Source: a virus
Lineage: Duplodnaviria > Heunggongvirae > Uroviricota > Caudoviricetes
Virus record (IMG/VR): IMGVR_UViG_2029527006_000005
Length of the DNA: 64,000 bases
Reading direction: 5' to 3' (one strand)
Positions 1 through 64,000 of the stretch are shown one piece after another; position 1 is the stretch's first letter, and every line of letters starts with the position of its first letter. The translations under genes and the position numbers were made by a program. Below the pieces are notes generated by a model. It was not told where the DNA came from. It ran no database searches and was given only the letters and a program-made list of their open reading frames with translations.

Positions 1-111
1 CCGCATATTTTTTAGTCTTGTACGTTATACGTTGCTTTTAACTCAACTTTCGTCATGCATGAAATTTCTGCTGGGGTTAAATTCATACTAGCAGGAATCC
101 AGTACTGGTTA

Positions 112-1398
112 TTAATCCTCACATTTGAGAAGGAATTTATTATTAATTACTTTAAAGTGTACTGTTACACCATTAACTTTTGTAACACTTTTATATACAT
201 CTCCTTCACAAATTTTATGTTTGATAGATGCGTGGTCAGCAGATGCTAGTGCATCTTTAATGCTTTCGTACTCATCAAAGAAATACACGATATCACCCTG
301 TGGAACTACAGTCAATCCTAGTAGTGCACAAAATTCTTGGAATTCAGCATCGTCAAAGAAACATTTATTATCAATATCCCAAACACGGAACGCAAAGAAT
401 GTATGTTCAGTTAGTTCTTCACGGTTACCCTGAATACCCATTCCCATACATTCGCCTTGAATGGCTAGCTGACGATCATGAGCTACACAGTACTCTTTTA
501 GACGCTGTGGGATATCGTCTTTTAGGGCCGCTTTCCAGAAGTGAGATTCTGCATCAAATTTAAGTGCTAGGTTACGAGAACAAATTGCAATCTGACCATC
601 TTCCCACTGGAAAGGATATGGTTTAACTTCAACGATTTCTAGTTCTTGAGTTTCCTCATTCCATGCACGTACTTCTTCATCCACTTTCTCAACAAAGAAA
701 TCTGGGTTAGAGAAGAATGCAATAGTTTGGCTAGAGCCATCTAGCTTTAGAGACTTACGGAAACCTACACCTTTCATGGTCTGAGAGTACTTACCAAAGA
801 TATTCTGAACACGATCTTCATCAGTCTTAGGGATGGTAATAGGGAAGTTACCTGCACTCTTACATTTCTGTGCACCAGTACCGCCATTACGCTCATCAGG
901 ACGTTCGTACTTAGTAACGTTCAAGAATTCTTCAATACCATAACGTGATTCTTCTAGAATGGAAAGGATGAATTTTTCGTCAAGAACTGCAAATGTTGGT
1001 GCATTGATAGATAAATTTTTTCCAAATTGTTCTGTCATAAAATCAGTTTGTCCAATTTTATACAATTCATTACTAAACATAGATACCGGGAGTGCTAGCC
1101 CTTGACTGACGACACCACGAAGTTTCTTGGTACGAAGACGGAAGCGACGTACACCAGCTTCATCAATCTTATCAGAACTACCAGTAAGAAATGCGAAGGT
1201 TGGGGTTTCTACTGGTACAAAAGAATCAATCTCAAGGAATACACAGTACTGACCAACTTCAAATTCACCTTTCTTGACTACAACATCCCAACCATCAACG
1301 GTTGCTTTTACAATCATATCCGCACCTTCAATCGGCTCAATAGCATTGATTTTACGAATAGTGACCAGTTTTCTTCCTTCTTTGATAAGTTCAGCCAT
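112..1398 (-). CDS. ATP-dependent RNA ligase (Rnl2/DRB0094 family) with N-terminal OB-like domain
   Basis: Motif I KLDGSS, ICSRN, IQGECMG, FRVWDI, EGDVYK, FKVINNKFL; N-terminal 'IEPIEGADMI..ATVDGWDVVVKKGEF' and 'KLRGVVSQGL' typical of the family. Confidence 0.9.
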   Translation of the reverse strand: MAELIKEGRKLVTIRKINAIEPIEGADMIVKATVDGWDVVVKKGEFEVGQYCVFLEIDSFVPVETPTFAFLTGSSDKIDEAGVRRFRLRTKKLRGVVSQGLALPVSMFSNELYKIGQTDFMTEQFGKNLSINAPTFAVLDEKFILSILEESRYGIEEFLNVTKYERPDERNGGTGAQKCKSAGNFPITIPKTDEDRVQNIFGKYSQTMKGVGFRKSLKLDGSSQTIAFFSNPDFFVEKVDEEVRAWNEETQELEIVEVKPYPFQWEDGQIAICSRNLALKFDAESHFWKAALKDDIPQRLKEYCVAHDRQLAIQGECMGMGIQGNREELTEHTFFAFRVWDIDNKCFFDDAEFQEFCALLGLTVVPQGDIVYFFDEYESIKDALASADHASIKHKICEGDVYKSVTKVNGVTVHFKVINNKFLLKCED

Positions 1399-1651
1399 TT
1401 AGTTTTCTCCAAAAGTGTTTAATAGTTTTGAGAAGAGGGTTGTTTACCTTAATCTCGACAATTTCAATATCTGCTGGTGGTTCTTCATACTTGTAGTACT
1501 GAACACGTTGTATCTTATATGTGATGAATTCCTTCTTCTCAAAGCAGGAAGCTATCACGTATGGTTTATCGGTCCAGTACTGGATCTTTCTTAGTACTGG
1601 ATTGATAACCAATTTTAACCTAGTTTTATGTACTCGATGAATATTAGTCAT
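1391..1651 (-). CDS. hypothetical protein
   Basis: ORF overlapping neighbours in minus-strand operon. Confidence 0.55.
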   Translation of the reverse strand: MTNIHRVHKTRLKLVINPVLRKIQYWTDKPYVIASCFEKKEFITYKIQRVQYYKYEEPPADIEIVEIKVNNPLLKTIKHFWRKLNG

Positions 1652-2009
1652 CAGTACCGCGTAGGATGTAATATGCCATGTACTCTGCGTGTGTACCTTG
1701 CATTTGATCCTTACGAATCAGTCTACTACCAGAACAAAACATCTTAACACGACTTCTTTGTACTGGATTAGTACGATATATTTTAAAGCACCATCTACTC
1801 AAAAACGGTTCAGGATTTACTACATCTTCAAACGTTTTGAACTTTTTGGACATTCTCGGTTTTGTCATTTCTTTTTCAATTAACGAATAGAAATTATTTG
1901 GTTTAATCAAATGCAACAATTTCCAAGTATATCTCATGTTCAAGAAACGATTAAGATATTTTACATTTCTACGTTTTAACAAACGTCTACTTAGTGCCAT
2001 ATCAGTCAA
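1644..2009 (-). CDS. hypothetical basic protein
   Basis: ORF coupled to neighbours; start may be the ATG near 2000. Confidence 0.55.
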   Translation of the reverse strand: MTDMALSRRLLKRRNVKYLNRFLNMRYTWKLLHLIKPNNFYSLIEKEMTKPRMSKKFKTFEDVVNPEPFLSRWCFKIYRTNPVQRSRVKMFCSGSRLIRKDQMQGTHAEYMAYYILRGTDD

Positions 2010-2157
2010 GCATCTTAGCGATTTGTCCAGCAGTGAGGTATGCTAATGCAGCACACAACCACCAGTACCAACCATCGGTGTTAGTAATAAACCCATAACC
2101 ACCAATCACTGATAGGAGAATGGCGAATGAGTACTTGAATGCATCTTTAGAGTTCAT
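2002..2157 (-). CDS. small membrane protein (51 aa, below the ORF track cut-off)
   Basis: Read by hand: MNSKDAFKYSFAILLSVIGGYGFITNTDGWYWWLCAALAYLTAGQIAKMLD*; AAGGA upstream; fills the gap between two genes. Confidence 0.65.
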   Translation of the reverse strand: MNSKDAFKYSFAILLSVIGGYGFITNTDGWYWWLCAALAYLTAGQIAKMLD

Positions 2158-30229: not shown

Positions 30230-30231
30230 AA

Positions 30232-33744: not shown

Positions 33745-33777
33745 TATAATTTCCTCTTTTGTTTTGATAACATCTAT

Positions 33778-33806
33778 ATTATATCACATTGTTGAGCGTT
33801 TGTCCC
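33778..33806 (-). promoter_or_regulatory. promoter GGGACA-N12-TGTGA-TATAAT
   Basis: Motif repeated four times. Confidence 0.8.
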
Positions 33807-33814
33807 AACTTTTT

Positions 33815-34286: not shown

Positions 34287-34332
34287 ATTATATCACTCTA
34301 ATTGAAAGGGGGCAATAGCTGCCCCCAAATTA

Positions 34333-35796: not shown

Positions 35797-35854
35797 CCTT
35801 ATCTATATATCGAGACATTCCTTGTCTCTCAATCGTATTTAGGTACGATAATTT

Positions 35855-36482: not shown

Positions 36483-36486
36483 TTTG

Positions 36487-37047: not shown

Positions 37048-37056
37048 TATACCCTC

Positions 37057-38186: not shown

Positions 38187-38194
38187 CCTTCACC

Positions 38195-38641: not shown

Positions 38642-38674
38642 TTTTTATCCTTTTGGGTAGTTAATATACTGTAT

Positions 38675-39085
38675 TTACGTATATAATTTAACTCCACCCC
38701 GGTACATATAGACTCCCTTATCAGTAATTACATGAATGTACTTAACTGATGAATTTGGAACTGGAACGGAAAAGACGTAGTACAAATAACAACAGCGTTT
38801 AAATTCTTCCATCATATCGTTGGTTACAATCTCAACCTTCTTGTAACGCATTGAGAGAATTAATAAAGACCGTTCAAATGATGTTGTTTGTGAAACACCC
38901 CAACACATATCATTTTGTGCATAATGTTCTTTGGTGCACAAAAATTTTACAATGTCAGGGTTTTGTTCAACTAATACACGCATCTCGTGTGTAAGTTGTA
39001 CAAACTCACTAATACTTTTAGTCCGTTCATACACCATCTTTAAGTAATGGTGTATTCTTAGGTTATTAGTATGTGAAGATATCAT
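38675..39085 (-). CDS. hypothetical protein
   Basis: ORF in operon. Confidence 0.5.
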   Translation of the reverse strand: MISSHTNNLRIHHYLKMVYERTKSISEFVQLTHEMRVLVEQNPDIVKFLCTKEHYAQNDMCWGVSQTTSFERSLLILSMRYKKVEIVTNDMMEEFKRCCYLYYVFSVPVPNSSVKYIHVITDKGVYMYRGGVKLYT

Positions 39086-39659
39086 ATTCAGAACTTACGC
39101 TAGTTACATTAGTACTAACAATTTTGAAGATATCAGTTACACGGTCAACCATCCCAAGATTACCTTCTTTATTTGCAATATGGAATGCTTGCATTGCTGC
39201 GATTGCATGATAAGTACCACTACCCACAGATGTAATTTGAGTTTTAGGTTGTAGTACTGAGAAGTCTTCTTGAACTTCGTAAATCACATGGTCGTGGAGA
39301 ATAATAAACTGACCACCACCAACGTCTTGTGTATTGTCACGTGAACCCCATTCATCTTTGAATAGTTTGCGAATCTCTGGAATTACTTGATGCACTAGAT
39401 ACTGAGTAACAGTAGTACCTTTCTCTTGAACTGGTAGTTCTAGTTTATGGTCAAGAAGCTGTAGCATACGGAACGAAGTGGTTCCACCTAATGCTAGAGT
39501 ATGTTCTTCACGTTGTACACCATCTTCAAGTACTTTGATGAATTTCTTCTCAAAGATTTTAGGTTCAACCATCACTGACTTGGTAAAACCATTAGAGCCT
39601 AATTTATCACCTGCAATGAAAGATGATTCCCCGTTAGTATAAGCGATAATACAAGTCAT
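39066..39659 (-). CDS. Ntn-hydrolase, HslV/proteasome-beta-like protease
   Basis: M-T-CIIA N-terminal Thr, AGD, K, VGSG motifs. Confidence 0.65.
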   Translation of the reverse strand: MTCIIAYTNGESSFIAGDKLGSNGFTKSVMVEPKIFEKKFIKVLEDGVQREEHTLALGGTTSFRMLQLLDHKLELPVQEKGTTVTQYLVHQVIPEIRKLFKDEWGSRDNTQDVGGGQFIILHDHVIYEVQEDFSVLQPKTQITSVGSGTYHAIAAMQAFHIANKEGNLGMVDRVTDIFKIVSTNVTSVSSEYDIFTY

Positions 39660-39671
39660 TTACATTCCTTA

Positions 39672-39953
39672 TTAGTTTTGATAAACAAACATCATTAGAA
39701 TAATCGGCGTACATGCAAGTACAACCCAGAATATACCAATAACCGTTGTCTTGAATACTGCACCACTTGTACCGGGATGTGGGCTTTGCCAAAATCTCCA
39801 GTACACACTTTGTATACGGTCTTTAATTGACCAACCTTTGTAATGCTTGTTGAATAAAATAGGCAGAAAAGCAACGACTGTGCAAACAAAAAAGAATACA
39901 AACAGTCCGAAAATCTTTTCTAACGCTAGCAGTACTTCCATAATGGTTTCCAT
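39672..39953 (-). CDS. small membrane protein
   Basis: Two TM segments. Confidence 0.6.
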   Translation of the reverse strand: METIMEVLLALEKIFGLFVFFFVCTVVAFLPILFNKHYKGWSIKDRIQSVYWRFWQSPHPGTSGAVFKTTVIGIFWVVLACTPIILMMFVYQN

Positions 39954-39957
39954 ATTC

Positions 39958-40197
39958 TTATCCCATGTAGTGTTTGATAACTACTGGAATAGCTACTAAA
40001 CCAACCATCCACGCAAGATAACCTAAACAATGAAGTACTTGATAGACGCGAAGTTTAAAAGTACTTTTATTTTCATGTTTAGCCCAACCGATTAAACAGT
40101 TAGTTTCACTGTGGGCTATTCCGTTGAATACCAGCAGGAATGGACCCACACCGAACCACCAAACAACCATGAAAAATGCTGCAATTGCTGTTGCCAT
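39958..40197 (-). CDS. small membrane protein
   Basis: Two TM segments. Confidence 0.6.
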   Translation of the reverse strand: MATAIAAFFMVVWWFGVGPFLLVFNGIAHSETNCLIGWAKHENKSTFKLRVYQVLHCLGYLAWMVGLVAIPVVIKHYMG

Positions 40198-40224
40198 AAT
40201 TAAACCCTCTGTATAATTGAGAGT

Positions 40225-40722
40225 CTAGTATAATGCCTGTTTGGTGGGAATGCAAGATAAATCTTCAATAATTTTTAGTTCATATTCGAATTCATATTTT
40301 TTACGAATTGAGCCATCCTGTACGATAAGGTGCGTTATACCGTTATGTACATAACAGTCAGTGATGTAGCACTGATGAAGAGGGAATATGTTTGTTTTAA
40401 CATACATCCAAACTTCACCAATCTTAAAGTACACATCATCTTCATTGCGTTCGTAATCAGTAACTATACCACGTGGTATTGGGAATTTCGATTCCATGAC
40501 AATTTGATCATTTAGTAGTTCATACATTTGCATATATGCATGATTACGTTCTTCAGTACTAGAAGCAGTACGTTGAATGTAATTGTAATGTTCGTTGATA
40601 CGATACAATGTATGACCTAGTAGAAGTGGTTGACTCATAGCATTGCTACCGGACCGAGAATGTAGATTGCAATTAGACATGCAAACAATACAAATAGGAA
40701 ACTTTTGAATTCCATAAACCAC
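40225..40722 (-). CDS. hypothetical protein (true start likely MSQPLL near 40638)
   Basis: ATGA overlap with upstream gene. Confidence 0.55.
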   Translation of the reverse strand: MVYGIQKFPICIVCMSNCNLHSRSGSNAMSQPLLLGHTLYRINEHYNYIQRTASSTEERNHAYMQMYELLNDQIVMESKFPIPRGIVTDYERNEDDVYFKIGEVWMYVKTNIFPLHQCYITDCYVHNGITHLIVQDGSIRKKYEFEYELKIIEDLSCIPTKQALY

Positions 40723-40886
40723 GCTTTGAAACGGAATTTACGAGTATGAGTTTCGTTATCAACTGTGTACCAACCACGAGTAGTTGCTTTAACAATAACG
40801 TATGCAGAACCCGTTGACAAAATGTACATAATAGCTAGCATTACATATTCCATAATTACCCTCCAAAAATTAGTAATCTTCCCCAT
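40635..40886 (-). CDS. small membrane protein
   Basis: Two TM; ATTRGW..WFMEFKS shared with 41777-41986. Confidence 0.6.
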   Translation of the reverse strand: MGKITNFWRVIMEYVMLAIMYILSTGSAYVIVKATTRGWYTVDNETHTRKFRFKAWFMEFKSFLFVLFACLIAIYILGPVAML

Positions 40887-41541
40887 ATGGGAATTCGTAG
40901 TGAGAGATTAGTTTGTTCTGATAGCTAACAATGGAAATATACTCCCCATCTTCATCTTCAAAAAGACGGAATTCAATCTCGCCCCATTTTTGCTTCTTAG
41001 TGCGTTTAGCTTTTTTACCATAAGTGTCTTGGATGAACTTCTTGCAATCTGCTGTACTTTTAACATCGATTGCATCTGGTGCAGTAAGAGACTTACCTAG
41101 TAAAGTACTGAAGAAATCTTCAATTTCTTTTACACGAGCACGTACTGTTAATTCTGGGAAATGTTCATCGTGGTCAGTATAAATCAATTCACTGTAACTT
41201 TCCATACAACGCCAATCAACAAGACCCAAATCGGACAACTCTTTCCAGTGAATTTGAGTAATATACTCGATTAGTGATTGATCGTCAAGGTATCCTTCAT
41301 CAGTTTTTAAACCAAATGGGAACCCACTAAACTCTTCTGGATCACGGCGACCTAATACAATTGATGGTGCAGAAGGAATATTTTCTGAATCACTTTCATA
41401 TTCTTCTTTATCATCTGGATCATTGAGGTCATATTCATTCAACTCAATAATACCTTTAAGTACTTGATCGTGTACCCATTTTGAATCATATAGTGGTAGT
41501 ACATAACTATCTAGTTTAGATTTTAGTTCAGAAAATAACAT
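40870..41541 (-). CDS. acidic hypothetical protein
   Basis: AGGAG RBS, 223 aa. Confidence 0.65.
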   Translation of the reverse strand: MLFSELKSKLDSYVLPLYDSKWVHDQVLKGIIELNEYDLNDPDDKEEYESDSENIPSAPSIVLGRRDPEEFSGFPFGLKTDEGYLDDQSLIEYITQIHWKELSDLGLVDWRCMESYSELIYTDHDEHFPELTVRARVKEIEDFFSTLLGKSLTAPDAIDVKSTADCKKFIQDTYGKKAKRTKKQKWGEIEFRLFEDEDGEYISIVSYQNKLISHYEFPYGEDY

Positions 41542-41549
41542 ATAAACTC

Positions 41550-41831
41550 CTAGAGTATTAGTTTAAAGATTATTGTTGGTATTCCGATGTATGACAACAC
41601 ACCAACACCTATCATACCAGCAGAAAGAATAATTCGAACAATAAATGGAACATTTGGACCACCCATTGCAGATACAACCGCCATTGCTAATATGGCTAGA
41701 ACTGGAGTTATTAAAGCACACACAGCTATAGATAATATGGTACAAAGAACAACTAATGCTATTGTCATATAAACTCCTATGGAATTAATGCAAAAAATGA
41801 AACAACATAAATGAAAATTACAAAACCCCAA
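41550..41831 (-). CDS. small membrane protein (true start likely MTIALVV near 41768)
   Basis: Hydrophobic; paralogue of 41998-42225. Confidence 0.55.
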   Translation of the reverse strand: MGFCNFHLCCFIFCINSIGVYMTIALVVLCTILSIAVCALITPVLAILAMAVVSAMGGPNVPFIVRIILSAGMIGVGVLSYIGIPTIIFKLIL

Positions 41832-41986
41832 ACTGTGTATAGAACAGATTTGTACTCATCAAACCAACCACTCCAATCAATCTTTCCGTTTCTACTCCAT
41901 CCAATTGTTGTTGCCATAGTAATACAGTATGCCACTAGTCCTACAAACACAAAGATGATTGATAAAAACAAAACACTCCAAAACAT
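41777..41986 (-). CDS. small membrane protein
   Basis: Two TM; ATTIGW..WFDEYKS. Confidence 0.6.
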   Translation of the reverse strand: MFWSVLFLSIIFVFVGLVAYCITMATTIGWSRNGKIDWSGWFDEYKSVLYTVWGFVIFIYVVSFFALIP

Positions 41987-41997
41987 ATTCTGTACTC

Positions 41998-42225
41998 CTA
42001 AAGTATTAAGAAAAATATAAGTACTGGAACTGCAATGTACGCAACTAGTAAAATACCAATATAACCTGCAACCATGAAGTATTTTTCTTTATTGGTAAGG
42101 CCGGGTGCACCACCTGCCATTATGAATGGCATTAGTGCCATTGACACGAACGGTGCACTTACTATACACCACACAATTGTTAATACTATACCTAAAATTA
42201 TTGATAAAATCATAATCCACCTCAC
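41998..42225 (-). CDS. small membrane protein
   Basis: Hydrophobic; MAGGAP..YIAVP. Confidence 0.6.
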   Translation of the reverse strand: MRWIMILSIILGIVLTIVWCIVSAPFVSMALMPFIMAGGAPGLTNKEKYFMVAGYIGILLVAYIAVPVLIFFLIL

Positions 42226-42227
42226 TT

Positions 42228-42252
42228 AAAAATGGGGAGGTCATGCCTCCCC
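42228..42252 (-). terminator. intrinsic terminator
   Basis: GGGGAGG-loop-CCTCCCC followed by ATTTTT. Confidence 0.7.
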
Positions 42253-42262
42253 TAAAAACTAA

Positions 42263-43741
42263 TTACAAACCTTTGTTAGCACGTTCACGTACTTCATCAA
42301 AAGAACTTAGGTTCATAATTTTACCATCCACATACACATCAACCATCATATCTTCTAGTTGTTTGTTCACGTCCTGTAGCTCAATGCGTTCAGCAATGAT
42401 TTTACCAGTAACTTTACATTTGTATGTGGTTACGCGACCACGTAGGCTACGTTTACCAACATCAGTAATTGGGTCTTTGAATAGGTCTTCCCAAGTACCG
42501 TCTTCTAGTTGTTGTGCAGAACCTTTCATTGCAAAGCTATAAGTATCGCGACCTTTCGGTGGGTGTACTAGCTTACCACCCATACCAAACACAATGTTCT
42601 CTAGAGATAGGTTGTGTTTTTCTAGGTTAGCAACGATTGCACGGATAGAATCTTCTTCAATACCATCACCTTGAATCACTCCAATGTAAGATGGTAGTAC
42701 ACGCATACCTTTAGCATTTAGGGTAGTACCGAACTTGTCAGCTAGAATCTCTAGGATTTCAATTGGCATAGTTTCTGGATTACCACTATCTGGACGGGCA
42801 ACAATTTTTGCACCCGGACATTTCGCAGCGATTTCTTGAATCATTGCTTTTAGGCGTGTTCCGAGATATTCACGTACAAAGCGATATGCGTCATAAGTAT
42901 CGATTACAATAGATACGATTGGTGGAACACCAACAGAACCTTTAGCAATGTAATCATCACACATTTTCTCCCAAATACGCACCATTTTTAGTGCCATATT
43001 GAAGTCATCGCGTTTGTCTGCGTCAGAGTTGGAACAGGTTGCACTGTGCTCAGTAGCCATCACACTGCTTAGGTAATTCGTTTGTGTGTGATAGTAGTGT
43101 TTGATATAACGGTTTGCCAATAGGCAATCGGAGCCGTTGAATACCACTGCGTGAGCAATACCTGCTAGAATTGCTGATTCGTAGCTAGATGCACTACGAT
43201 CACCAAAGTTGTGTAGATGATAATCTACAAAGCGATGACCAGCATGACGTTCCATAGTATCTCCGAGGAACTCTTTGATACTACGGGCGTTTGAAGCAAC
43301 AGTAGTACTGAATTGGATAGCACGTTGAAGTTGTGTTTCAATGTAGCTAGCAATTACTTTTACTGCTGGATCAGTACTCATAGAACGTACAAGTGGCATA
43401 CCTACTGGTACTACAGTACCTTCAGGAATCGCACGGATGTGCAAAGGAATACGACCATCATGTTTATGAAGAATGTGTTCCCAGAATGCACGGTCGAAAT
43501 AATCCCCGCGAGATGCGGTTTCAGCTTCGGCTTCATCAATGTCATCCATCGTAATCTGAATATCGAGATATTCTTGTAGATAGACTTGTAGACCCATCAT
43601 TACTACGTGAGTAGTGTATGGTGTTGGCTTACGTGCAATGATGTTGGATTCAAGAGCAATTACGCCATCTTTCATCATCATGCCGTGTGCAGTTTTGTAT
43701 GAGTCTACGTTTAGGATAAAGTTAACTTTTAGATTTTTCAT
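42263..43741 (-). CDS. nadV: nicotinamide phosphoribosyltransferase (Nampt)
   Basis: DSYK, HNFGDR, ATEHS, VIDTYD, RPDSG, IQGDG, FGMGG. Confidence 0.93.
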   Translation of the reverse strand: MKNLKVNFILNVDSYKTAHGMMMKDGVIALESNIIARKPTPYTTHVVMMGLQVYLQEYLDIQITMDDIDEAEAETASRGDYFDRAFWEHILHKHDGRIPLHIRAIPEGTVVPVGMPLVRSMSTDPAVKVIASYIETQLQRAIQFSTTVASNARSIKEFLGDTMERHAGHRFVDYHLHNFGDRSASSYESAILAGIAHAVVFNGSDCLLANRYIKHYYHTQTNYLSSVMATEHSATCSNSDADKRDDFNMALKMVRIWEKMCDDYIAKGSVGVPPIVSIVIDTYDAYRFVREYLGTRLKAMIQEIAAKCPGAKIVARPDSGNPETMPIEILEILADKFGTTLNAKGMRVLPSYIGVIQGDGIEEDSIRAIVANLEKHNLSLENIVFGMGGKLVHPPKGRDTYSFAMKGSAQQLEDGTWEDLFKDPITDVGKRSLRGRVTTYKCKVTGKIIAERIELQDVNKQLEDMMVDVYVDGKIMNLSSFDEVRERANKGL

Positions 43742-43786
43742 TTTTAATACCTCTTCGGAAGTTGTTAAGAAAAGCTACATCACTTT

Positions 43787-44329
43787 TCAGATTATTAGTG
43801 AGTAAGGAATTTTATAGTCCACATTAAGATCAGCAAACATATTAGGATTTGGTGGAAATAATGCGTCCATTTTAAACTTCTGATTACTCTTTGCTATCTC
43901 TTCTATTGTATATTCCCCTTTTGATAGCTCATTGTCTATCTCATAGTAAGGAACTTCACCAATAACAGAAATATAGGTTGAGAACAATTCAGTACTGACA
44001 AGTAGTTTACTAGAAGAACAGGCAGCATACCTGTAAGCCCAAAACCCTTTTTCACCATCTTTGTACTCAAAATTTTTATCAACTACGTCTGAACTGAATG
44101 GGTTGTTTGTACTGCACCAATACCGGACAACCATAGTTGCATGTTGCCATTCATTTGCATTACGGATATGCCTAGCAGCCGCAAATATCAACGAATTTAT
44201 TTCACACAGTCTAACATGTTCTGGCAAAATGTCAAGAAATTTACAATTCGTCGTGTCATATTTGCTATGCAAGTGACCTTGCATAGCCATGATATCAGAA
44301 TATACGTCTTGTGTTAGACAATATAACAT
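43787..44329 (-). CDS. hypothetical protein between NadM-Nudix and Nampt
   Basis: TAATG-coupled to the upstream gene. Confidence 0.6.
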   Translation of the reverse strand: MLYCLTQDVYSDIMAMQGHLHSKYDTTNCKFLDILPEHVRLCEINSLIFAAARHIRNANEWQHATMVVRYWCSTNNPFSSDVVDKNFEYKDGEKGFWAYRYAACSSSKLLVSTELFSTYISVIGEVPYYEIDNELSKGEYTIEEIAKSNQKFKMDALFPPNPNMFADLNVDYKIPYSLII

Positions 44330-45447
44330 TATAGAATTCCGAGGAAAGTATCAATAATGCTTAGATGATCTTCAAAGAACATCTCACGATTGTTTGCAAT
44401 CTCAGAAAGTGGAACCCAGAATGCTTTCTCTGCATCATCACTACCTTTTACTTTAGGTAGTTTTGCACCAGCTAGCTTGATATAAGCACACTTGGTGATG
44501 ATACGCCAGCGTAGGGAACGTTCGAAGTCACCGAACTCTTCAACTTTCTCAATAGAACCTTTTAGTTCTTTATAACGAACATCAATCTTAGTTTCTTCTT
44601 TTAGTTCACGCAATGCTGTATCGACCTGTGTTTGGTCTTCCCATGCGTCAAAGAATCCACCGGGTAACGCCCATAATCCTTTACCGGGATAGGTGCGACG
44701 TTTTACTAGTAGGACGTGACCAGCACATACTACTAACGCATCACCCGTTAGGAATGGAATGTTAGTGTACGGTAGTTGCTCATTCATCTGTTTACGATAA
44801 CGTACAACAAAGTCGTGTTCATTTACTAGATTGTTTAGTACTTCAGGTTTATTCACGACGAACTTCTCAAGGAATTCTTGAGTTTCGGCGGGAAGACCAG
44901 AAGGTACTTGTTTAGTACTGAAGAACTGATTACGCAATGCAGTGCTGCTGAATGCTGGTGTAGGATTAACTTTAGAATCCTGTTCACGATATTCTGCTGG
45001 TACTGCTGGGTTAACAGTTAGTACTTCTTCGATAAAATCTTGTTTCCAGTGCGGGAAGAAGTCGAGATAGAAAGTACTTGCATCACCTTCTTTACGACAA
45101 CCAGTAAGTACAATGTCAGTACTGTTGCTAACTGAAGCAACTTGATTTTGAACTTCTTTTAGCCACTTGGTATTGTTGTAAGTGTAATCGTGCACTGGAA
45201 GAATATTAATCTTCACAGAACGACCTTTTGACCACTCTTCGGATGCAATACGTTGTGCCATCGCTTCTAGTACTGTTTTGCGTTCGTCAAAGGTGAACGG
45301 GTTTTTTGGGTCACGAGCTAGTTCGGAAGAACCAACTAGTAGGACAACGCGATCAGCTTTTTCGATTGCATTTTTAAGTACTTCTTCATGACCACGATGT
45401 GTCATTTGGAAACGACCGATATAAACATAAACTTTTTCTTTACTCAT
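44329..45447 (-). CDS. nadM: bifunctional NMN adenylyltransferase / ADP-ribose pyrophosphatase (NadM-Nudix)
   Basis: IGRFQ..HRGH, SSTALR; Nudix box PGG...ALRELKEET, SDDA, FEDH. Confidence 0.93.
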   Translation of the reverse strand: MSKEKVYVYIGRFQMTHRGHEEVLKNAIEKADRVVLLVGSSELARDPKNPFTFDERKTVLEAMAQRIASEEWSKGRSVKINILPVHDYTYNNTKWLKEVQNQVASVSNSTDIVLTGCRKEGDASTFYLDFFPHWKQDFIEEVLTVNPAVPAEYREQDSKVNPTPAFSSTALRNQFFSTKQVPSGLPAETQEFLEKFVVNKPEVLNNLVNEHDFVVRYRKQMNEQLPYTNIPFLTGDALVVCAGHVLLVKRRTYPGKGLWALPGGFFDAWEDQTQVDTALRELKEETKIDVRYKELKGSIEKVEEFGDFERSLRWRIITKCAYIKLAGAKLPKVKGSDDAEKAFWVPLSEIANNREMFFEDHLSIIDTFLGIL

Positions 45448-45502
45448 TCTAAGTACTCCTTAGTTATTTTTTAACACCGCCTACATCAGCGGCTACATTC
45501 TT

Positions 45503-45531
45503 ATTATATCACATGATTTTTGGTTTGTCCC
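45503..45531 (-). promoter_or_regulatory. promoter GGGACA-N12-TGTGA-TATAAT
   Basis: Motif repeated four times; upstream of the NAD operon. Confidence 0.8.
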
Positions 45532-45568
45532 TAAGTTTTTATGGGCGTTTATCCGTGATATGTCGTCT

Positions 45569-46930: not shown

Positions 46931-48241
46931 AAAGCTGGTAATTCTCCATTTACAACTGGTGGATATTGTGTAACAGCCGCCAAGATAAATGGTGTAACAT
47001 ATACTAACCTAAACATATACCAACAACGTTCTGACATGGTTTTTGACCTAATTGATACGTCTGGTAACATTTATACATTCATTTCATTGGTGTATAACAA
47101 TTCAGAGTCACAAACTCTAAATCCATCATTAAGTACTGAAGTACTTGTCAATTCAATTTCTGACAATTGTTTCTTTATTAAAGCAACAAATAGTCTAACC
47201 ACAAACACATCATTTGTGATTAGTTTTCAAAGTAATAAATTAAAACTAGCGAATGGTGAAATGCTTTATCGCCCGTTTGATTTATTCTACTGTAATATCC
47301 CAACCCCTGAACCTTTTATTCTTCCTGATATGTCTAGAAGCTATTTTTCAGGTGGTGATGTGGTTGTACCCGCAACTGGTGAAGATTTCGGTACAGCAGA
47401 TTTATTCCTAGTAGGTACTGACGGAAAAAACATCACAAACTATGATGTTAGTAAAATAAAAATGTCATTAGTGAATGATGACGGAACTTCATCATTATCT
47501 GAAGTTATTTCAAATGGAAATGGGGTTTATTATGCCAAAGTGTATTCTACGGTAATCCAACCTGTATATTTTGTTTGTTCAGTTAATGGTGAAACACCAA
47601 ATATGACACGAAATTTTGTTCAATTTATATCACCACAACGTGCAACCGTAAGGACGAATAGTGCTGTTAATTATGGTACTGCTAGCACCGTGGTTGTTAA
47701 TACTGAATTTATAATAAATGATCCAGCCAACCAATCAGTATGGGATAATTCAGCTACGTGGACGTCACCAACTCCGGGCGTAACAATATTAGGAAATACA
47801 TATGGATCAACTTGTTATTTGATAGCTAACACCACCGATGATGTGGTACTACACTATCAATCAAATTGGCAGAAATCTTTGAATGCAACTGGTACAGTTA
47901 AGGTTGAACCCAATTTCATTTTAACATCACCTGATGGTACAGTGGATACATTTAAAATTATACCTGACTCAACTTTCGATGTTAAGTTTTCATATAACCC
48001 AGTTGACCTCAGTACTTCTGAGCCGGGTAATATTGTAATTTTGACAACAGCTTTAAATGGTGTAATAGATTCAGTTGAATATCTCGGATCTATGACTTAT
48101 AGATTTAAATCCAAAAGTGCTGATGAATTTGATTCATTTTCAAACTCTGGTATTGGTGATTTGACTCTTTCCAACTTCACATCACGTGCAAAAATTAAAT
48201 TTAATATATCAGATAAATCTGGTAACTTCGAGGACAATTAA
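46913..48241 (+). CDS. Ig-like virion protein, paralogue 2
   Basis: MGKPIA N-domain; invasin/Big_1-like central region. Confidence 0.7.
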   Translation: MGKPIAKAGNSPFTTGGYCVTAAKINGVTYTNLNIYQQRSDMVFDLIDTSGNIYTFISLVYNNSESQTLNPSLSTEVLVNSISDNCFFIKATNSLTTNTSFVISFQSNKLKLANGEMLYRPFDLFYCNIPTPEPFILPDMSRSYFSGGDVVVPATGEDFGTADLFLVGTDGKNITNYDVSKIKMSLVNDDGTSSLSEVISNGNGVYYAKVYSTVIQPVYFVCSVNGETPNMTRNFVQFISPQRATVRTNSAVNYGTASTVVVNTEFIINDPANQSVWDNSATWTSPTPGVTILGNTYGSTCYLIANTTDDVVLHYQSNWQKSLNATGTVKVEPNFILTSPDGTVDTFKIIPDSTFDVKFSYNPVDLSTSEPGNIVILTTALNGVIDSVEYLGSMTYRFKSKSADEFDSFSNSGIGDLTLSNFTSRAKIKFNISDKSGNFEDN

Positions 48242-48242
48242 T

Positions 48243-50162
48243 ATGGGAAAACCAATAGCAGGCCAAGACCAATTCCCTTACAATACTAATGGGTTTTTAG
48301 TAGATGCGGCAAAAATTAATGGTGTAACATTTTCTAAATCACTGTACATATACAAACAACGTTCTGATACATACTATGATTTACAGGATACATCAGGTAC
48401 AATTTATCAGTTTGTTAAAATCGTTGGAACTGACCAAGATAAAAAACCACTTCAGTACTTTGATACATCCGAAGACATAGCTTTGAAATTGGAAAACAAC
48501 ACATTTTGTATGAAAATACAAGATCCAACTAGAGGTATATTTTCGTTTGTTAGACTTTACCAATGGCATAAATGTATAACATTCGATGGTGATTATATTT
48601 TCAGGAAAGGTGGATTAGATCCAACATTAAGTGGTGTTTATATAAATCCAGTGGTTGCGACAATATCTAAAGGTTCCACTCAATCATTCGTAGCTACTTT
48701 TTTCCCTGATGAATACTTGAACACTGATGGTAATTGGTATTTGAACATAAATGGTTCGGAAAAGACAATAAACACTTTAATTAAACAAACTGATAAAAAT
48801 AAAATTGTGGTTGAGGGAATAGATGTTGGTAAATCAATTTTATCATTTATACCATCTGGAAACAATTCTAAAATTTCAAGTTCAATAATCAATGTTATTG
48901 ATGCAGATACGCCAGTTCAAAGTTTTTTTGGTAGAGGAACAACAGACTTGCCATTTTCAACCACGCGTGCGTTATATGGTGAGGAATTTGATATTGTTAT
49001 TGAAACCTATCCATATGATGCAGTGTTGACTGAAGCACTCGATTTTGATATTAACATGAACGATGGATTAAGTATTGATGAAATAACTTTAGTGAAAGTA
49101 TCGGATGATTTTAGAACCTATACCTTTAAATCAAAATATATATATGATATCGATCCAGTTGGGATTTCATACAATCCTAGAATTACTTTTAAAATGAAAA
49201 ATCCAATTGATTTTGAATTTATGGTTTATTCAATTTATATATATAATGAAATGCGAGAAATTTATGTCAAGGAAAACGAAGAACTTGGCGTTAGGTATGA
49301 AGTTCTTTCAAATTTAAGACCAAATTCGCAATACCAAGCAATAAAACAATACATGTATTATGGTATACAATATAACCCATATATCTCATCTGACCCATCA
49401 ATTGCAACATTGGATCATGAGACTGGTTTAATAACGACATACGATAAAACTGGCGAAGTTTCATTCTCAACCACATATGTTAGAGATAATGGGGAAGTTG
49501 TTAATTATGATAATATATTAAGCTTTTCTGTAATACCGGATGTTTATGATTATATAACAATCGATCCACCAAATATCACATCAGTTCCTATTAATTCAAC
49601 AACCCAGTTTAAAATATACGGCGTGATTGGGGATATTAAAACTGAATTGAAAATTAAAGAAGTCAGTGATTCCAATTACAAAATAACATCGGATGGTATA
49701 TTAACTACTTATAACAAGGCTGGTGCTTATGCAACCGTTCAAGTTGATGATTTGTTTGAATTGTCATCTAATGTAATGACACCATATCAAACATTTGGAG
49801 CTTTCCCATTAATCGTTGAAGATGATAAATCAAAATATCAAATTACCGATCTATCATCATCTTGGGTATACCAAAATAATACTGTGTTTGTCAATCTAGA
49901 TGGATATACCGCAGGGTTAATTCCAAATTTCACAATAAACCCATACCCAGAAGTATGTGTGGATTATGAATTGGAAATAATTTCATATGATGAATCTATA
50001 ATTGAAATTTTAGATAAAGAACGAATCTCGGAAAATCAATGTTTTATGGCTGGTCAAATGATTGTTTACTTCAATCCCGTATCACGTGGAAGTACTTTAG
50101 TTGTTGTTGGAAGTGTTTCTAATCCAGACATTAAAATTGAAGTTAAAGTTGTAGTTTACTAA
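48243..50162 (+). CDS. Ig-like virion protein, paralogue 3
   Basis: Start reassigned to MGKPIAG at 48243; SSDPSIATLD..G Ig motifs. Confidence 0.7.
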   Translation: MGKPIAGQDQFPYNTNGFLVDAAKINGVTFSKSLYIYKQRSDTYYDLQDTSGTIYQFVKIVGTDQDKKPLQYFDTSEDIALKLENNTFCMKIQDPTRGIFSFVRLYQWHKCITFDGDYIFRKGGLDPTLSGVYINPVVATISKGSTQSFVATFFPDEYLNTDGNWYLNINGSEKTINTLIKQTDKNKIVVEGIDVGKSILSFIPSGNNSKISSSIINVIDADTPVQSFFGRGTTDLPFSTTRALYGEEFDIVIETYPYDAVLTEALDFDINMNDGLSIDEITLVKVSDDFRTYTFKSKYIYDIDPVGISYNPRITFKMKNPIDFEFMVYSIYIYNEMREIYVKENEELGVRYEVLSNLRPNSQYQAIKQYMYYGIQYNPYISSDPSIATLDHETGLITTYDKTGEVSFSTTYVRDNGEVVNYDNILSFSVIPDVYDYITIDPPNITSVPINSTTQFKIYGVIGDIKTELKIKEVSDSNYKITSDGILTTYNKAGAYATVQVDDLFELSSNVMTPYQTFGAFPLIVEDDKSKYQITDLSSSWVYQNNTVFVNLDGYTAGLIPNFTINPYPEVCVDYELEIISYDESIIEILDKERISENQCFMAGQMIVYFNPVSRGSTLVVVGSVSNPDIKIEVKVVVY

Positions 50163-60400: not shown

Positions 60401-61144
60401 TTACCTCTTGAATCTGTCAAAGCTATGCTCATCTTTCGGTCTACGGAAGTGACGTGGAGTTTTACCACTGAACATAGTAAATGTTAAATCACCACTCAAG
60501 AACTGACTATCAATCCACATACGGTTACCGTACACTAATGGGTCAACTACACCAGTGTGTCCAGAAAGTACATAATCGATACCAGCAATCTTTGGTGCGT
60601 TAGGAGTTTGATTGTACTTACAATCATCGAATACTTTACGATCCCAAATGATTTCTTCCACTAAGTCCCATTTCATAGGCTTAACATCAGCAACAAAAGT
60701 ATCCCAATCAGTATAGCGTAGTGGGACTCCACCGTGAACTAGACCAATCTTTAAACCTCTGTGATGAATTTCAATGATTAGTGGTAGTTGATCAACGAAA
60801 GGTCTGAAGTACTGGAATCCAGTTTCTCCTACTTCGTTAAGGAAAACATCACCACCGTTCTGCATATGGCAGTGGAAGAAATCTCGACGATGTTCACCCA
60901 TTACGTACATGTTTTCATGGTTCCCGATGATCATATAACGGTTCTCTTTGAATAGGAATTCGAATAGTAATTTAGCACTTTGAGGACCACGATCAATAAC
61001 ATCACCTACACTAAAGACATAATCTTTATCAGTGATTCCAAATTCCTTAAGTGAACGTTCATACAAATCAGCATTACCATGTAGGTCACCGACGATGAAT
61101 AGTTCCCGGTCATCGGGAACTACTATTTTCTGAAAATGATTCAT
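60401..61144 (-). CDS. serine/threonine protein phosphatase (PPP/lambda-like)
   Basis: GDLHG, GDVIDRGP, GNHE, HGG, GHT. Confidence 0.9.
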   Translation of the reverse strand: MNHFQKIVVPDDRELFIVGDLHGNADLYERSLKEFGITDKDYVFSVGDVIDRGPQSAKLLFEFLFKENRYMIIGNHENMYVMGEHRRDFFHCHMQNGGDVFLNEVGETGFQYFRPFVDQLPLIIEIHHRGLKIGLVHGGVPLRYTDWDTFVADVKPMKWDLVEEIIWDRKVFDDCKYNQTPNAPKIAGIDYVLSGHTGVVDPLVYGNRMWIDSQFLSGDLTFTMFSGKTPRHFRRPKDEHSFDRFKR

Positions 61145-61767
61145 AAATTTGTTGTCTCTATATTATTAGCATAATCATAAGCTAATTTATTTTTAATATT
61201 ATGTAAAGCGTCAACCACATCTTGATAAAAGAATGGCTCATTTTTATACTTATCTATAATAAGATCAGTATATTGTATTTTACCTAATTGCCATGCTTTA
61301 TGTGCTTCATTTGTAGTTTTGTATCTACCTAGATTTTTAAGTACACCAAACATTCTTATTGATGTTTTATACAGATTTCTATCCTTAGATACACCCAATG
61401 GATATATACCCCTGCTACCAGCACTAATACGATAGGCATTATTAATATACACTGGAATCAACAAACATGTATCAGGTGAATACATATGTAAATCTGTTTT
61501 TAAATCTTTATCCAATTCCAAAACACTTATATATTCGCCAACTGGATGTGAATCAATCCATTTTTTGAAATTACTGAAGTACTTCCACTCTTCATGAACC
61601 ATTGACCCACTGTAGGTTGGTCTACAAGATTGGTATTTTACACTAGTGGTTCTAATTTTCATCTGTGCCCATTTGTCGTAAATTGGGCAAGTCCACACTT
61701 GTTTACACTTACCGTCAGTGGTTTCATATAGAGATACTTTATAATCAGCATCATTTATGAATTCCAT
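61141..61767 (-). CDS. HNH homing endonuclease with AP2-like C-terminus
   Basis: W..MK.R, WKYFSNF, LDKD, YSPDTC..N, LGRYKT..EAHKAW; more AT-rich than flanks. Confidence 0.75.
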   Translation of the reverse strand: MEFINDADYKVSLYETTDGKCKQVWTCPIYDKWAQMKIRTTSVKYQSCRPTYSGSMVHEEWKYFSNFKKWIDSHPVGEYISVLELDKDLKTDLHMYSPDTCLLIPVYINNAYRISAGSRGIYPLGVSKDRNLYKTSIRMFGVLKNLGRYKTTNEAHKAWQLGKIQYTDLIIDKYKNEPFFYQDVVDALHNIKNKLAYDYANNIETTNL

Positions 61768-62460: not shown

Positions 62461-62795
62461 GATTTTTTAATAATAACCTTTGGGTCAGAATTGTGTTTAT
62501 TATAACGGTCACGAACAATACTATTCTCGGACTGATCTACACGCCAGCGTTCACCACAAGAACGACACTCACCCTCGTACCAGTACTCATCATCTGAACG
62601 ACAATAGTTTCCAGTGTCAGAACGTGCACAAACTGTCATGTGTCGATGTTGACAAGTGTCCTGTAAATCTTGAATTTCTTTATAGAGGGCAGCTTGTTTC
62701 TTTTGAATAGCAATGATTGCTTCACGGCGTTCAGCTTCTTCTAAATCAAAGAACTGCTCTCCATTATCTGTGTAATAGATTTTCTCTTCTCTCAT
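62457..62795 (-). CDS. small zinc-ribbon protein
   Basis: CQH...CRSCG; N-terminus similar to 59686-59913. Confidence 0.6.
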   Translation of the reverse strand: MREEKIYYTDNGEQFFDLEEAERREAIIAIQKKQAALYKEIQDLQDTCQHRHMTVCARSDTGNYCRSDDEYWYEGECRSCGERWRVDQSENSIVRDRYNKHNSDPKVIIKKS

Positions 62796-63688
62796 TACAT
62801 TTCCTCTTTGAATGGTTTAATCATGTGTTGGTTTGCATGGAAACGCTTGACAAAATCATCTTCACCAAATTCACGGAACAAAGCAATAATATCATAGAAA
62901 CGTTTATATGCGAATTCACGGAACCATCCAGAAGTAATACTAGTACAAACCTTAATCAAGGCAGTAATGAAAGCATGTTTTGGAGTTGGTTCGAAGTTGA
63001 ATGGAATCAAACAACGTTCTAGTGCTAGTACACAAGTTTCCTCATACACACCTAGTAGCTGTCTGATATCACTGCACTCAAAGAACTTAGCCTTGTCAAC
63101 CATTACTTCAGCACCATCTTTCATATAACTTTTATATGCAGGTGCATCCATAATAGCGACGGCTTCATGAATGGTATCGTGGTCATAGATGTACCCAACC
63201 TCATCTTGGAAGAAGGTTTCTTTGGACTGATTGAGTACTGGATGGTCGTAATTATACGTTTCTTTCTCCCGAATGTCAAGGATTTTTTTCAACTCCACAT
63301 CGAGACTTGCACCCATCTTTTCCATATCGCGAATATGAGAACGAGTCTTTAGAAAGTGAGGACTATTACGCAAATAACGATGAGACATTTTAATACAGTA
63401 CAATACATTTAGTGAAGCGATTACATCTTCTTCTACACCCCAAGCATTACTGTACTTCATTAATTGTTCAGTACTATTATTGTCGTGTGCAATGTAGAAC
63501 TCATAGTTCAAACCATTACAGAATAGATGACAATAATCGGAGGTACGTTTGTGAATAACAAAATCCTTCATATTACTGAAGTACTCAATTTGTTCATCGA
63601 GTTCTTTATCAGTGCACATGTAGTCTAAATCTTGTGGGGTAATCTCTGGCTTATAGGATTTATAAGCATAGGAACCAATTGCTAGCAT
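62795..63688 (-). CDS. putative nucleotidyltransferase-fold protein
   Basis: N-terminal IGS...QDLDY; HDTIHE and CTSITSGWFR conserved-looking motifs. Confidence 0.55.
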   Translation of the reverse strand: MLAIGSYAYKSYKPEITPQDLDYMCTDKELDEQIEYFSNMKDFVIHKRTSDYCHLFCNGLNYEFYIAHDNNSTEQLMKYSNAWGVEEDVIASLNVLYCIKMSHRYLRNSPHFLKTRSHIRDMEKMGASLDVELKKILDIREKETYNYDHPVLNQSKETFFQDEVGYIYDHDTIHEAVAIMDAPAYKSYMKDGAEVMVDKAKFFECSDIRQLLGVYEETCVLALERCLIPFNFEPTPKHAFITALIKVCTSITSGWFREFAYKRFYDIIALFREFGEDDFVKRFHANQHMIKPFKEEM

Positions 63689-63978
63689 AGTCCGTCCTCC
63701 ATCATGTATTTTAATGCGTCTTTTAGATTGTTGTACTGACGTAAGTAAGTACCTTCAACGCAGTATAAGTTTTTGTGCGGGAAGTAATTCATATTCATAA
63801 CCGAATCACCTCTAATAGCAAGATTGTAACATAAGTCTGTTTCCATTACATAGCTAGGTTTTGTGTTTTCTAATGCTATTGGAAGGTAGTATAAAATCTT
63901 TTCAATATTCTCTTTGATATATATGCGGTCAGCATACCAAATGAAATTTTGTCCAGAAACATCACGGTCTAATTTCAT
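63682..63978 (-). CDS. hypothetical protein
   Basis: Overlapping ORF in operon. Confidence 0.5.
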   Translation of the reverse strand: MKLDRDVSGQNFIWYADRIYIKENIEKILYYLPIALENTKPSYVMETDLCYNLAIRGDSVMNMNYFPHKNLYCVEGTYLRQYNNLKDALKYMMEDGLC

Positions 63979-64000
63979 TGTCCAAAAGAACGCTTTGCAT

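Follow-up and report, generated by a model that had tools for sequence, protein, structure and literature searches.

Why should a phage genome that has lost most of its short palindromes carry one of them, AGTACT, at many times the expected frequency? The question is raised by a 64,000-nucleotide stretch of DNA (the window), which comes from a giant enterobacterial phage of the RaK2/121Q-like jumbo type. AGTACT occurs 185 times in the window and is the most frequent of all 4096 hexamers, the next being GTACTT with 117 occurrences. The preliminary description had reported an approximately nine-fold over-representation of the word, and this observation is confirmed: the factor is 8.7, every position that it named (the first seven starts given in the table below, together with 10018 and 10027) is exact, and its counts by eye of about 30 sites in 1–10 kb and about 30 in 10–20 kb correspond to actual counts of 28 and 33. 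Base composition predicts 21.3 sites and 100 dinucleotide-preserving shuffles predict 19.5 (SD 4.2, maximum 31), whereas Markov models of order 2, 3 and 4 predict 40, 81 and 161, respectively. The order-4 figure is close to the observed count, but it is high because the sub-words AGTAC and GTACT are themselves made abundant by the hexamer. The two flanks of the GTAC core are cooperative, in that A is found upstream in 61 % of cases when T follows but in 42 % otherwise (odds ratio 2.16, P=2e-5). Density is even along the window (7–19 sites per 4 kb; mean 2.89 and variance 2.22 in 1 kb bins), spacing is Poisson-like, and no gene is significantly poor in sites, the lowest being that at 48186–50162 with 2 sites against 5.7 expected (P=0.08). 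A repeat-element origin was rejected, since the 26 bp contexts of all 185 sites differ.

Features of the 64 kb window that are discussed in the text
Coordinates	Strand	Feature	Remarks
1..64000	.	185 dispersed copies of AGTACT, one per 346 bp on average	First starts 101, 489, 786, 1245, 1495, 1576, 1593, 2130, 3051, 3288; last starts 62582, 63234, 63470, 63580
47132..47145	.	Closest pair of sites, AGTACTTCAGTACT, starts 8 bp apart	Directly preceded by TTGACA when read on the minus strand; other close pairs are 10018/10027, 25838/25848 and 1576/1593
45452..45457	.	Site in the divergent intergenic region (45448-45559)	Lies between the minus-strand and plus-strand gene blocks
61141..61767	-	208-aa gene of the HNH-endonuclease-associated family (PHROG 953, C-terminal half)	One of only three protein types found to be shared between AGTACT-rich jumbo phages and the AGTACT-rich Leclercia prophage; mobile, not syntenic with the copy in fENko-Kae01; listed as context, not as the reader

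Does the excess reside in the proteins, in the codons or in the DNA itself? Within called genes there are 165 sites, of which 66 are read as AGT|ACT, 58 as xxA|GTA|CTx and 41 as xAG|TAC|Txx, and the non-coding density (3.0 per kb) is at least that of coding DNA (2.9 per kb). Against the 165 sites observed, a synonymous-codon shuffle within genes gave 37.6 (SD 5.5, maximum 49; z-score 23), and a dinucleotide-preserving synonymous shuffle gave 80.4 (SD 6.1, maximum 93; z-score 14), so that the excess remains two-fold under the stricter model; disappearance of the excess under a codon-aware shuffle had been set beforehand as grounds for rejecting the observation, and it did not occur. Of the Ser-Thr dipeptides, 58 % are written AGT-ACT (14 % expected), Val-Leu sites carry the word 58 times against 12.6 expected, and [KEQ]-Tyr-[FLSYCW] sites carry it 41 times against 5.1 expected. 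These peptides are themselves 1.3-fold enriched in the window and 1.3–1.6-fold enriched across the four genomes. The sites also appear to be constrained: in comparison with fENko-Kae01, at 75 % identity, 50 % of sites are kept, against 24.6 % for all hexamers, and the synonymous codons AGT, ACT, GTA and TAC are more conserved inside the word than outside it (odds ratios 2.4–3.4; P=0.012–0.052, three of the four below 0.05). However, this positional conservation ranks only 13th among 164 frequent hexamers and is therefore raised but not exceptional, and a biased mutation or repair process with a high equilibrium frequency would give similar numbers.

The enrichment is a property of the whole clade. 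Nine relatives carry 850–1356 sites each, against 130–200 for the reversed control word, and in three whole relative genomes AGTACT is the top hexamer at 7.8–11.3 times expectation. In contrast, the Pseudomonas phage 30-2, an outgroup, has 18 sites (control 39) and the T4-like Cronobacter phage LPCS28 has none (control 109). Two of the strongly enriched relatives were isolated on Xanthomonas, outside the Enterobacterales. The word stands against a background of extreme palindrome avoidance, with GCGC found 0 times against about 73 expected, CCWGG once against 46, and 27 hexamer palindromes at or near zero, while other palindromes that were not purged stay at 0.5–2.9 times expectation. The flanks of the word are two-fold symmetric (TTnCAGTACTGnAA): at position −1 C is over-represented and G under-represented, at −3 T is over-represented and C under-represented, and at −4 T is over-represented, each mirrored on the other side even though the genes run mostly one way. 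In the relatives, the arrangement AAAAGTAC-TTGACA-N17-TATAAT recurs at roughly 16–21 non-coding sites per genome.

The same word is found in an unrelated small prophage of Leclercia tamurae, which has 157 sites in 34.5 kb (10.6 expected), GCGC once against 66 expected, the same purged hexamers and the same flank profile. Its edges are sharp, the flanking host DNA lacking the word (about 0–0.1 per kb). A search for genes shared between this prophage and the jumbo phage proteomes (blastp and phmmer) returned only a lysozyme domain, a mobile protein of about 200 aa related to HNH endonucleases and a weak endonuclease match, none of which we judged to be a plausible reader; with some of the jumbo phages the prophage also shares an accessory methyltransferase. 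Other AGTACT-dense viral contigs (L093/L079, L155 and L151) had no match in the phage collection.

Searches for candidate readers of the word were negative. ParB_N (PF02195) gave no match in the four phage genomes tested or on the prophage contig, TetR_N (PF00440) gave none above the cut-off in nine jumbo genomes (the Leclercia genome was not included), and Phd/YefM (PF02604) gave none in nine jumbo genomes or in the Leclercia genome. These results are weak evidence only, because small DNA-binding proteins escape such searches. Similarly, the ScaI endonuclease profile (PF09569) gave no match in nine relatives or the Leclercia genome, but it gave none in the control genomes either, so that this search lacked a positive control. 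A resemblance to the LexA half-site (CAGTA/TACTG) was considered and dropped, as there is no preference for T after CTG and only a weak excess of 18 bp spacing. We found no paper describing the feature: none of the listed papers on RaK2, 121Q, GAP32, PBECO4 and CBB-type phages contains AGTACT, and a search for CAGTACTG gave only primers. The RaK2 paper reports some m5C at CpG, and restriction results that do not name ScaI, and fEgEco12 DNA is cut normally by ten enzymes, ScaI and RsaI not being among those used.

Our current working hypothesis, to which we would give a probability of roughly 0.55, is that AGTACT is a selected, highly iterated palindrome of this phage lineage, kept at about 2.4–3.9 copies per kb by a pressure that acts on duplex DNA and overrides codon choice and, in part, amino acid sequence. 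The symmetry of the preferred full form points to a symmetric, probably dimeric, sequence-reading factor, which would be expected to bind sequences such as TTCAGTACTGAA, rather than to translation, RNA or base composition. Because an unrelated temperate phage of the same host order carries the same word, flank preferences and purged palindromes, yet shares so few genes with the jumbo phages, we infer that one and the same reader acts on both families and that it may well be encoded by the enterobacterial host or by an element common in it, although the two relatives from Xanthomonas weaken the case for a strictly enterobacterial host reader. The likely mode of action is non-covalent: dense binding would distinguish phage DNA (about 3 sites per kb) from host DNA, and it would also touch transcription, since the word is built into the edge of the −35 box of a set of sigma-70-type promoters in relatives. 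The enrichment, its DNA-level nature, its symmetry, its distribution in the clade and the convergence of the two phage families are demonstrated by our analysis, but that a protein binds the word, what such binding does and whether the reader is of host or phage origin are inferences from sequence alone. The interpretation offered in the preliminary description is thus partly supported. A pressure at the DNA level, acting genome-wide, and the comparison with cyanobacterial HIP1 are upheld, whereas among the mechanisms that it listed a simple repair bias finds no support and a binding or self-marking protein fits the symmetric flanks best, although no such protein was identified. It is tempting to speculate further, although we consider it unlikely, that a single reader common to enterobacterial cells, or to elements widespread in them, recognizes TTnCAGTACTGnAA without covalent modification, and that at least two unrelated phage lineages have independently saturated their genomes with the word so that its density tells phage DNA from host DNA, the gain being protection, compaction or control of early transcription. 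This would be a sequence-density 'self' code for viruses.

The principal alternative, which remains possible but which we regard as distinctly less likely, is that the palindrome is linked to methylation, as proposed for HIP1, with an orphan adenine methyltransferase, which would be a small Dam-family enzyme in the jumbo phages and a gamma-class NPPF enzyme in the small prophage, marking GTAC or AGTACT and the word being created or kept by methyl-dependent repair or by a function that reads the methyl mark. A small Dam-family methyltransferase (PF05869) is present in all nine AGTACT-rich jumbo genomes tested and absent from the AGTACT-poor Pseudomonas outgroup and from LPCS28, which leaves a covalent mark possible, and the Leclercia prophage encodes a 266-aa gamma-class protein with clear m6A-methyltransferase motifs (QYYT, EPAAGTGSF, NPPF), a 55 % identical homologue of which sits in some AGTACT-rich jumbo contigs of 341–355 kb. 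Furthermore, one-letter variants that keep the GTAC core are the most enriched (2–2.9-fold), while inner variants are mostly at 1.0–1.9-fold, which is reportedly the pattern for HIP1 and its inner methylase site. However, neither enzyme has been assigned a specificity, and characterized PF05869 members methylate GATC; the gamma-class enzyme is missing from fENko-Kae01, EJP2, CBB and the window, the prophage lacks PF05869, and the PF05869 correlation rests on essentially one phylogenetic event. Other methyltransferase classes are not universal in the clade: the C5 class (PF00145) is absent from fENko-Kae01, which has 941 sites, N6_N4 (PF01555) occurs only in GAP32 and CBB, and the D12 class (PF02086) is absent from all five. 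Nor is there the signature of a directional, very-short-patch type of repair, since of the nine classes of one-mismatch neighbour none is specifically depleted and most are at or above expectation (about 1.0–2.9-fold), only AGGACT/AGTCCT being low (0.5–1.0-fold), and this is not a transition product of the word.

A neutral mutational or repair bias of the phage replication and recombination machinery, with no reader and no function, would be consistent with the turnover of individual sites, with their Poisson-like spacing and with a high equilibrium frequency, which alone explains part of the apparent conservation. We consider it improbable, as the same word, flanks and purge list occur in a temperate phage with unrelated replication genes, dipeptide content has been reshaped, the word is fixed at defined promoter positions and no neighbour word is depleted. 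Recruitment of the host nucleoid-occlusion protein SlmA, blocking cell division or titrating SlmA during infection, is an attractive possibility in that its site, GTGAGTACTCAC, has AGTACT at its centre, SlmA requires A4 and G5 and tolerates T6 (PMC3020112), the hosts are enterobacteria that have SlmA, and blocking of division is a strategy used by phages. Yet SlmA strongly needs G1 and T2 and a purine at position 3 (half-site G-T-R-A-G-Y; PMC3020112), whereas in the phage sites G is not enriched at −3, T is not enriched at −2, and at −1 G is depleted (0.39–0.69-fold) and C preferred. GTR-AGTACT half-sites fall at or below expectation in the window and the three jumbo genomes (8 against 10.6 to 40 against 46.8 on independent flank frequencies, and 37 against 71 in CBB on background) and full 12-mers number 0–1 per genome, so that this reading is very doubtful. 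Finally, GTA, AGT and ACT are preferred codons and related palindromes are purged, but a by-product of composition, of codon or codon-pair usage, or of the purging of GGTACC, CGTACG, AGCGCT and AGGCCT is refuted by the shuffles, within the limits of our simple gene calls; the word also occurs in all frames and in non-coding DNA, and the purged neighbours differ from it by two letters and their combined expected number is about 29 per 64 kb, so that they could not supply 165 extra sites.

Among described systems, HIP1 (GCGATCGC) is likewise a short palindrome far above expectation across whole genomes, found in all reading frames and in spacers, shared by a clade while individual sites turn over, with one-letter variants biased to the outer positions and orphan methyltransferases in the same genomes. 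AGTACT differs in its sequence (6 bp with an AT-rich core), in lying in phage rather than cellular genomes, in being set in genomes that have purged most other palindromes, in having no methylation shown, in recurring in an unrelated phage of the same host order and in being built into promoter edges. The SlmA-binding sites of Escherichia coli share the central hexamer, a two-fold symmetric site of about 12–14 bp, dispersal over a chromosome, the host group and reading by a dimer (for AGTACT an inference), but apart from their different flanks they number about 50 per 4.6 Mb, against about 1000 per 350 kb here. Chi (GCTGGTGG) and other identity words (DUS/USS, KOPS) are also dense, dispersed and short, with density rather than exact position seeming to matter, and mark one kind of DNA for a host machine, as AGTACT may do; they are, however, asymmetric and orientation-biased and have known readers (RecBCD, the uptake machinery and FtsK), whereas AGTACT is a perfect palindrome with symmetric flanks and no known reader. 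In comparison with restriction-site avoidance, which the same genomes show in extreme form, AGTACT goes the opposite way, at 8–15 times expectation.

Phages are expected to lose short palindromes because restriction enzymes cut them, and these genomes have done so to an extreme degree, yet they keep one palindrome at about ten times expectation, at a cost to codon choice and even to protein sequence. This implies a strong benefit that has not been described, and, given that an unrelated temperate phage of the same host order has arrived at the same word and flanks, a single shared reader should exist. On the practical side, the word is a simple sequence signature for recognizing such phages and prophages in metagenomes, and it predicts extreme sensitivity to ScaI- or RsaI-type restriction unless the sites are shielded. 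Identification of the reader would reveal a new way in which phage DNA is marked, protected or regulated, and might also throw light on the equally unexplained HIP1 of cyanobacteria.

The 64-kb window has 36.8% G+C and carries about 90 genes, nearly all on the minus strand. It matches the RaK2/121Q-like jumbo myophages, with best matches to Klebsiella phage fENko-Kae01 and Salmonella phages Munch and 7t3 at about 78-80% identity over roughly half the query, and it is a related but distinct phage that is not itself in the phage collection searched. By synteny with fENko-Kae01, the window covers RNA ligase, thymidine kinase, an HNH endonuclease, nucleotidyltransferases, NrdD/NrdG, thymidylate kinase, a deaminase, PhoH, Sir2, NAMPT and NMN adenylyltransferase. 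Part of this gene content forms a cluster of NAD-salvage and NAD-related genes, inferred by synteny with fENko-Kae01 and Munch. The coordinates of this cluster and of the other features discussed are listed in the table.

Coordinates of features in the window, in related jumbo phages and in the Leclercia prophage
Sequence	Coordinates	Strand	Feature
Window	1-64000		185 dispersed AGTACT sites; purge of other palindromes
Window	about 30000-45500		NAD-salvage and NAD-related genes, inferred by synteny: NAMPT, NMN adenylyltransferase, Sir2-type deacylase, putative nucleoside-diphosphate (Nudix-type) hydrolase, PhoH/PIN ATPase
Window	61141-61767	-	Mobile gene of about 200 aa related to the C-terminal half of HNH homing endonucleases (PHROG 953), intact; AP2-like motif by eye
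fENko-Kae01	113053-113721		Copy of the same mobile gene, split into two reading frames, at a non-syntenic place
fENko-Kae01	40216-40644		Small PF05869 Dam-family methyltransferase
G001:C11 (Leclercia tamurae H6S3 contig)	about 96,000-130,500 (loci L198-L202)		34.5-kb prophage
G001:C11	around 102-105 kb		Part of the prophage with few AGTACT sites, possibly recent cargo; includes a DUF2971 protein
G001:C11	105088-105888		Gamma-class adenine (m6A) methyltransferase of the prophage
L204-L207 (contigs of 20, 63, 341 and 355 kb, including CBB-like jumbo phage contigs)	6001-6834		277-aa homologue (55% identity) of the prophage methyltransferase; weak Pfam hit Mtase_EDM2

AGTACT occurs 185 times in the window and is the commonest of all hexamers, whereas 21.3 occurrences are expected from base composition and 19.5 (sd 4.2, max 31) from dinucleotide-preserving shuffles. 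The over-representation claimed in the preliminary description was thus confirmed; every site position named there proved exact, and its estimate of about 30 sites in each of the first two 10-kb stretches compares with 28 and 33 counted. Markov models of order 2, 3 and 4 give expectations of 40, 81 and 161, respectively, but the closeness of the order-4 value does not explain the word away, since AGTAC (4.3x) and GTAC (2.4x) are the most enriched 5-mer and 4-mer largely because they sit inside the hexamer. The two flanks of GTAC are not independent of one another (odds ratio 2.16, p=2e-5). The sites are spread evenly (1-kb bins: mean 2.89, variance 2.22), all have unique 26-bp contexts, and they are as dense in DNA that does not align to fENko-Kae01 (2.70/kb) as in DNA that does (2.99/kb).

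The pressure acts on DNA. Within called genes, the 165 sites fall in all three frames (66, 58 and 41), and non-coding DNA is at least as dense in sites. Shuffling of synonymous codons within each gene gives 37.6 sites (sd 5.5), and a stricter shuffle that also keeps dinucleotide content gives 80.4 (sd 6.1). Of Ser-Thr dipeptides, 58% are written AGT-ACT, against 14% expected, while Val-Leu sites carry the word 58 times against 12.6 expected and Tyr-centred tripeptide sites carry it 41 times against 5.1. These peptides are themselves 1.3-fold more frequent than amino acid composition predicts in the window, and 1.3-1.6-fold across the four genomes, so that the pressure reaches the protein sequence. 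In comparison with fENko-Kae01 (75% identity over 42.9 kb), 50% of sites are retained, compared with 24.6% of all hexamers and, where the amino acid is conserved, the codons AGT, ACT, GTA and TAC are more often kept when they lie inside the word (odds ratios 2.4-3.4; p=0.012-0.052, three of the four below 0.05). Half of the sites nevertheless differ between the two phages while density is maintained, and density therefore matters more than position.

Whole-genome counts of AGTACT in nine relatives, with counts of the reversed control word in parentheses, were 941 (150) in fENko-Kae01, 850 (149) in Munch, 1312 (159) in EJP2, 903 (134) in 121Q, 1011 (169) in GAP32, 1235 (187) in CBB, 1356 (130) in XaC1, 1313 (200) in Hallingskeid and 1008 (137) in fHe-Yen9-04. 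The nearest outgroup found through the tail sheath, Pseudomonas phage 30-2 (PA5oct-like), has 18 (39), and the T4-like Cronobacter phage LPCS28 (NC_070937.1, 182.7 kb) has none (109), which suggests that AGTACT-cutting restriction systems are a real pressure in this host group. Among phages of the same host group, the word therefore ranges from total avoidance to ten-fold excess. The excess is made paradoxical by an extreme purge of other palindromes in the same jumbo genomes. In the window GCGC is absent (73 expected) and CCWGG occurs once (46 expected); in the whole genomes of fENko-Kae01, EJP2 and CBB there is no GCGC at all (357-441 expected) and almost no CCWGG, and GGACC is 0 of 233 in fENko-Kae01. 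About 27 hexamer palindromes, such as CTGCAG, GGATCC, GTCGAC and AAGCTT, are at or near zero, yet GAATTC, CAATTG, CATATG, GTGCAC and CACGTG are not purged. The leucine codon CTG makes up only 2% of Leu codons in the called genes of the window (3% in fENko-Kae01, and 9-11% in CBB and EJP2), far lower than CTA or CTT, and this may be tied to the purge of CTGCAG, CAGCTG and CCWGG.

The flanks of the site are two-fold symmetric in the window, in three whole genomes and in the prophage described below. At position -1, C is raised (1.6-2.9x) and G lowered (0.4-0.7x); at -3, T is raised and C lowered; and at -4, T is raised. The complements appear on the other side, giving TTnCAGTACTGnAA. The symmetry holds although genes run mainly in one direction, which argues for a symmetric reader of duplex DNA and against an RNA-level signal; such a reader, inferred here from sequence alone, would be expected to be retained on duplexes such as TTCAGTACTGAA and AAAAGTACTTGACA. 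One-letter variants that keep GTAC are 1.6-2.9x enriched, whereas inner variants are mostly 1.0-1.9x, with AGGACT/AGTCCT at 0.5-1.0x, and no neighbour is specifically depleted. In the non-coding DNA of relatives, the word overlaps the upstream edge of TTGACA in a recurrent AAAAGTAC-TTGACA-N17-TATAAT arrangement, at roughly 16-21 sites per genome, while in EJP2 it overlaps the downstream edge instead (TTGACAGTACTG). This matches the RpoD-like early promoters with UP-like elements described for CBB (PMC5259590), although the window studied here lies outside that early region. In addition, there is an excess of site pairs at fixed spacings of 11 bp in EJP2 (26 pairs) and 21 bp in CBB (23 pairs), hinting at composite elements with two sites, probably in intergenic regulatory DNA.

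A scan of viral contigs for clustered sites identified a family of contigs of roughly 28-32 kb, a relative of which is a prophage of Leclercia tamurae H6S3. Several other large contigs, including giant-virus bins (L138, L153, L108 and L112), scored as AGTACT-dense only because of long repetitive protein-coding arrays that contain the word, and are not examples of dispersed enrichment. The prophage encodes a large serine recombinase, a lambda-type GpA terminase, a primase-like protein of 1023 aa, a SegE-like GIY-YIG gene and an orphan gamma-class m6A methyltransferase, and has no structural or replication gene in common with the jumbo phages. It carries 157 AGTACT (10.6 expected) and GCGC at 1 of 66, and it shows the same list of purged hexamers and the same flank profile, with C at -1 in 57-64% of sites. 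Its borders are sharp, the adjoining host DNA having about 0-1 site per 10 kb and normal GCGC. The genes shared with the jumbo phages were a lysozyme domain, found in other members of the family, the mobile, non-syntenic HNH-related protein of about 200 aa, which is present in three copies in CBB, and, in some jumbo contigs only, the gamma-class adenine methyltransferase. The jumbo homologue of this methyltransferase lies directly after a GmrSD_N-domain protein and is absent from fENko-Kae01, EJP2, CBB and the window, so that it moves between AGTACT-rich phages.

Of the mechanisms that might account for the word, the nucleoid-occlusion protein SlmA was considered because its site has AGTACT at the centre. 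However, SlmA needs G1, T2 and a purine at position 3 (PMC3020112), and the phage flanks show none of this. No ScaI-type nuclease, ParB, TetR or Phd/YefM protein was found in the relatives, which is weak evidence only, since small DNA-binding proteins escape such searches and the ScaI search gave no match in its control genomes either. E. coli K-12 has 78 CAGTACTG (control 60), indicating that the host neither avoids nor uses the octamer conspicuously. The main rival to a binding factor is a methylation-linked origin. The C5 methyltransferase is missing from fENko-Kae01, the N4/N6 enzyme is confined to GAP32 and CBB, and the D12 class is absent, but the small PF05869 Dam-family enzyme is present in all nine AGTACT-rich jumbo genomes tested and absent from both the outgroup and LPCS28. 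This correlation rests on one phylogenetic event and concerns an enzyme of undetermined specificity, so that a role in methylating the word is possible but unproven.

The closest known counterpart is the cyanobacterial highly iterated palindrome HIP1, with which those defining features that could be examined here agree; a link to a cognate methyltransferase is possible but unproven. By contrast, identity with SlmA sites, a Chi-like word and an origin in VSP-type repair were not supported. Among the papers on this phage group that were searched, none contains the word. The interpretation offered in the preliminary description, that AGTACT is a genome-wide mark under DNA-level pressure, was supported in part, but the choice among the mechanisms it listed was not settled. 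What the analysis demonstrates is a real, strong, DNA-level and clade-wide signal; that a protein reads it, and that the reader is encoded by the host, are our inferences, no such protein having been identified. Two enriched relatives isolated on Xanthomonas weaken a strictly enterobacterial reading. The occurrence of the same word, flanks and purge list in two lineages that share no core gene suggests one common reader or one common selective environment, and our current view is that AGTACT in these phages is most likely a selected recognition word for a symmetric reader.
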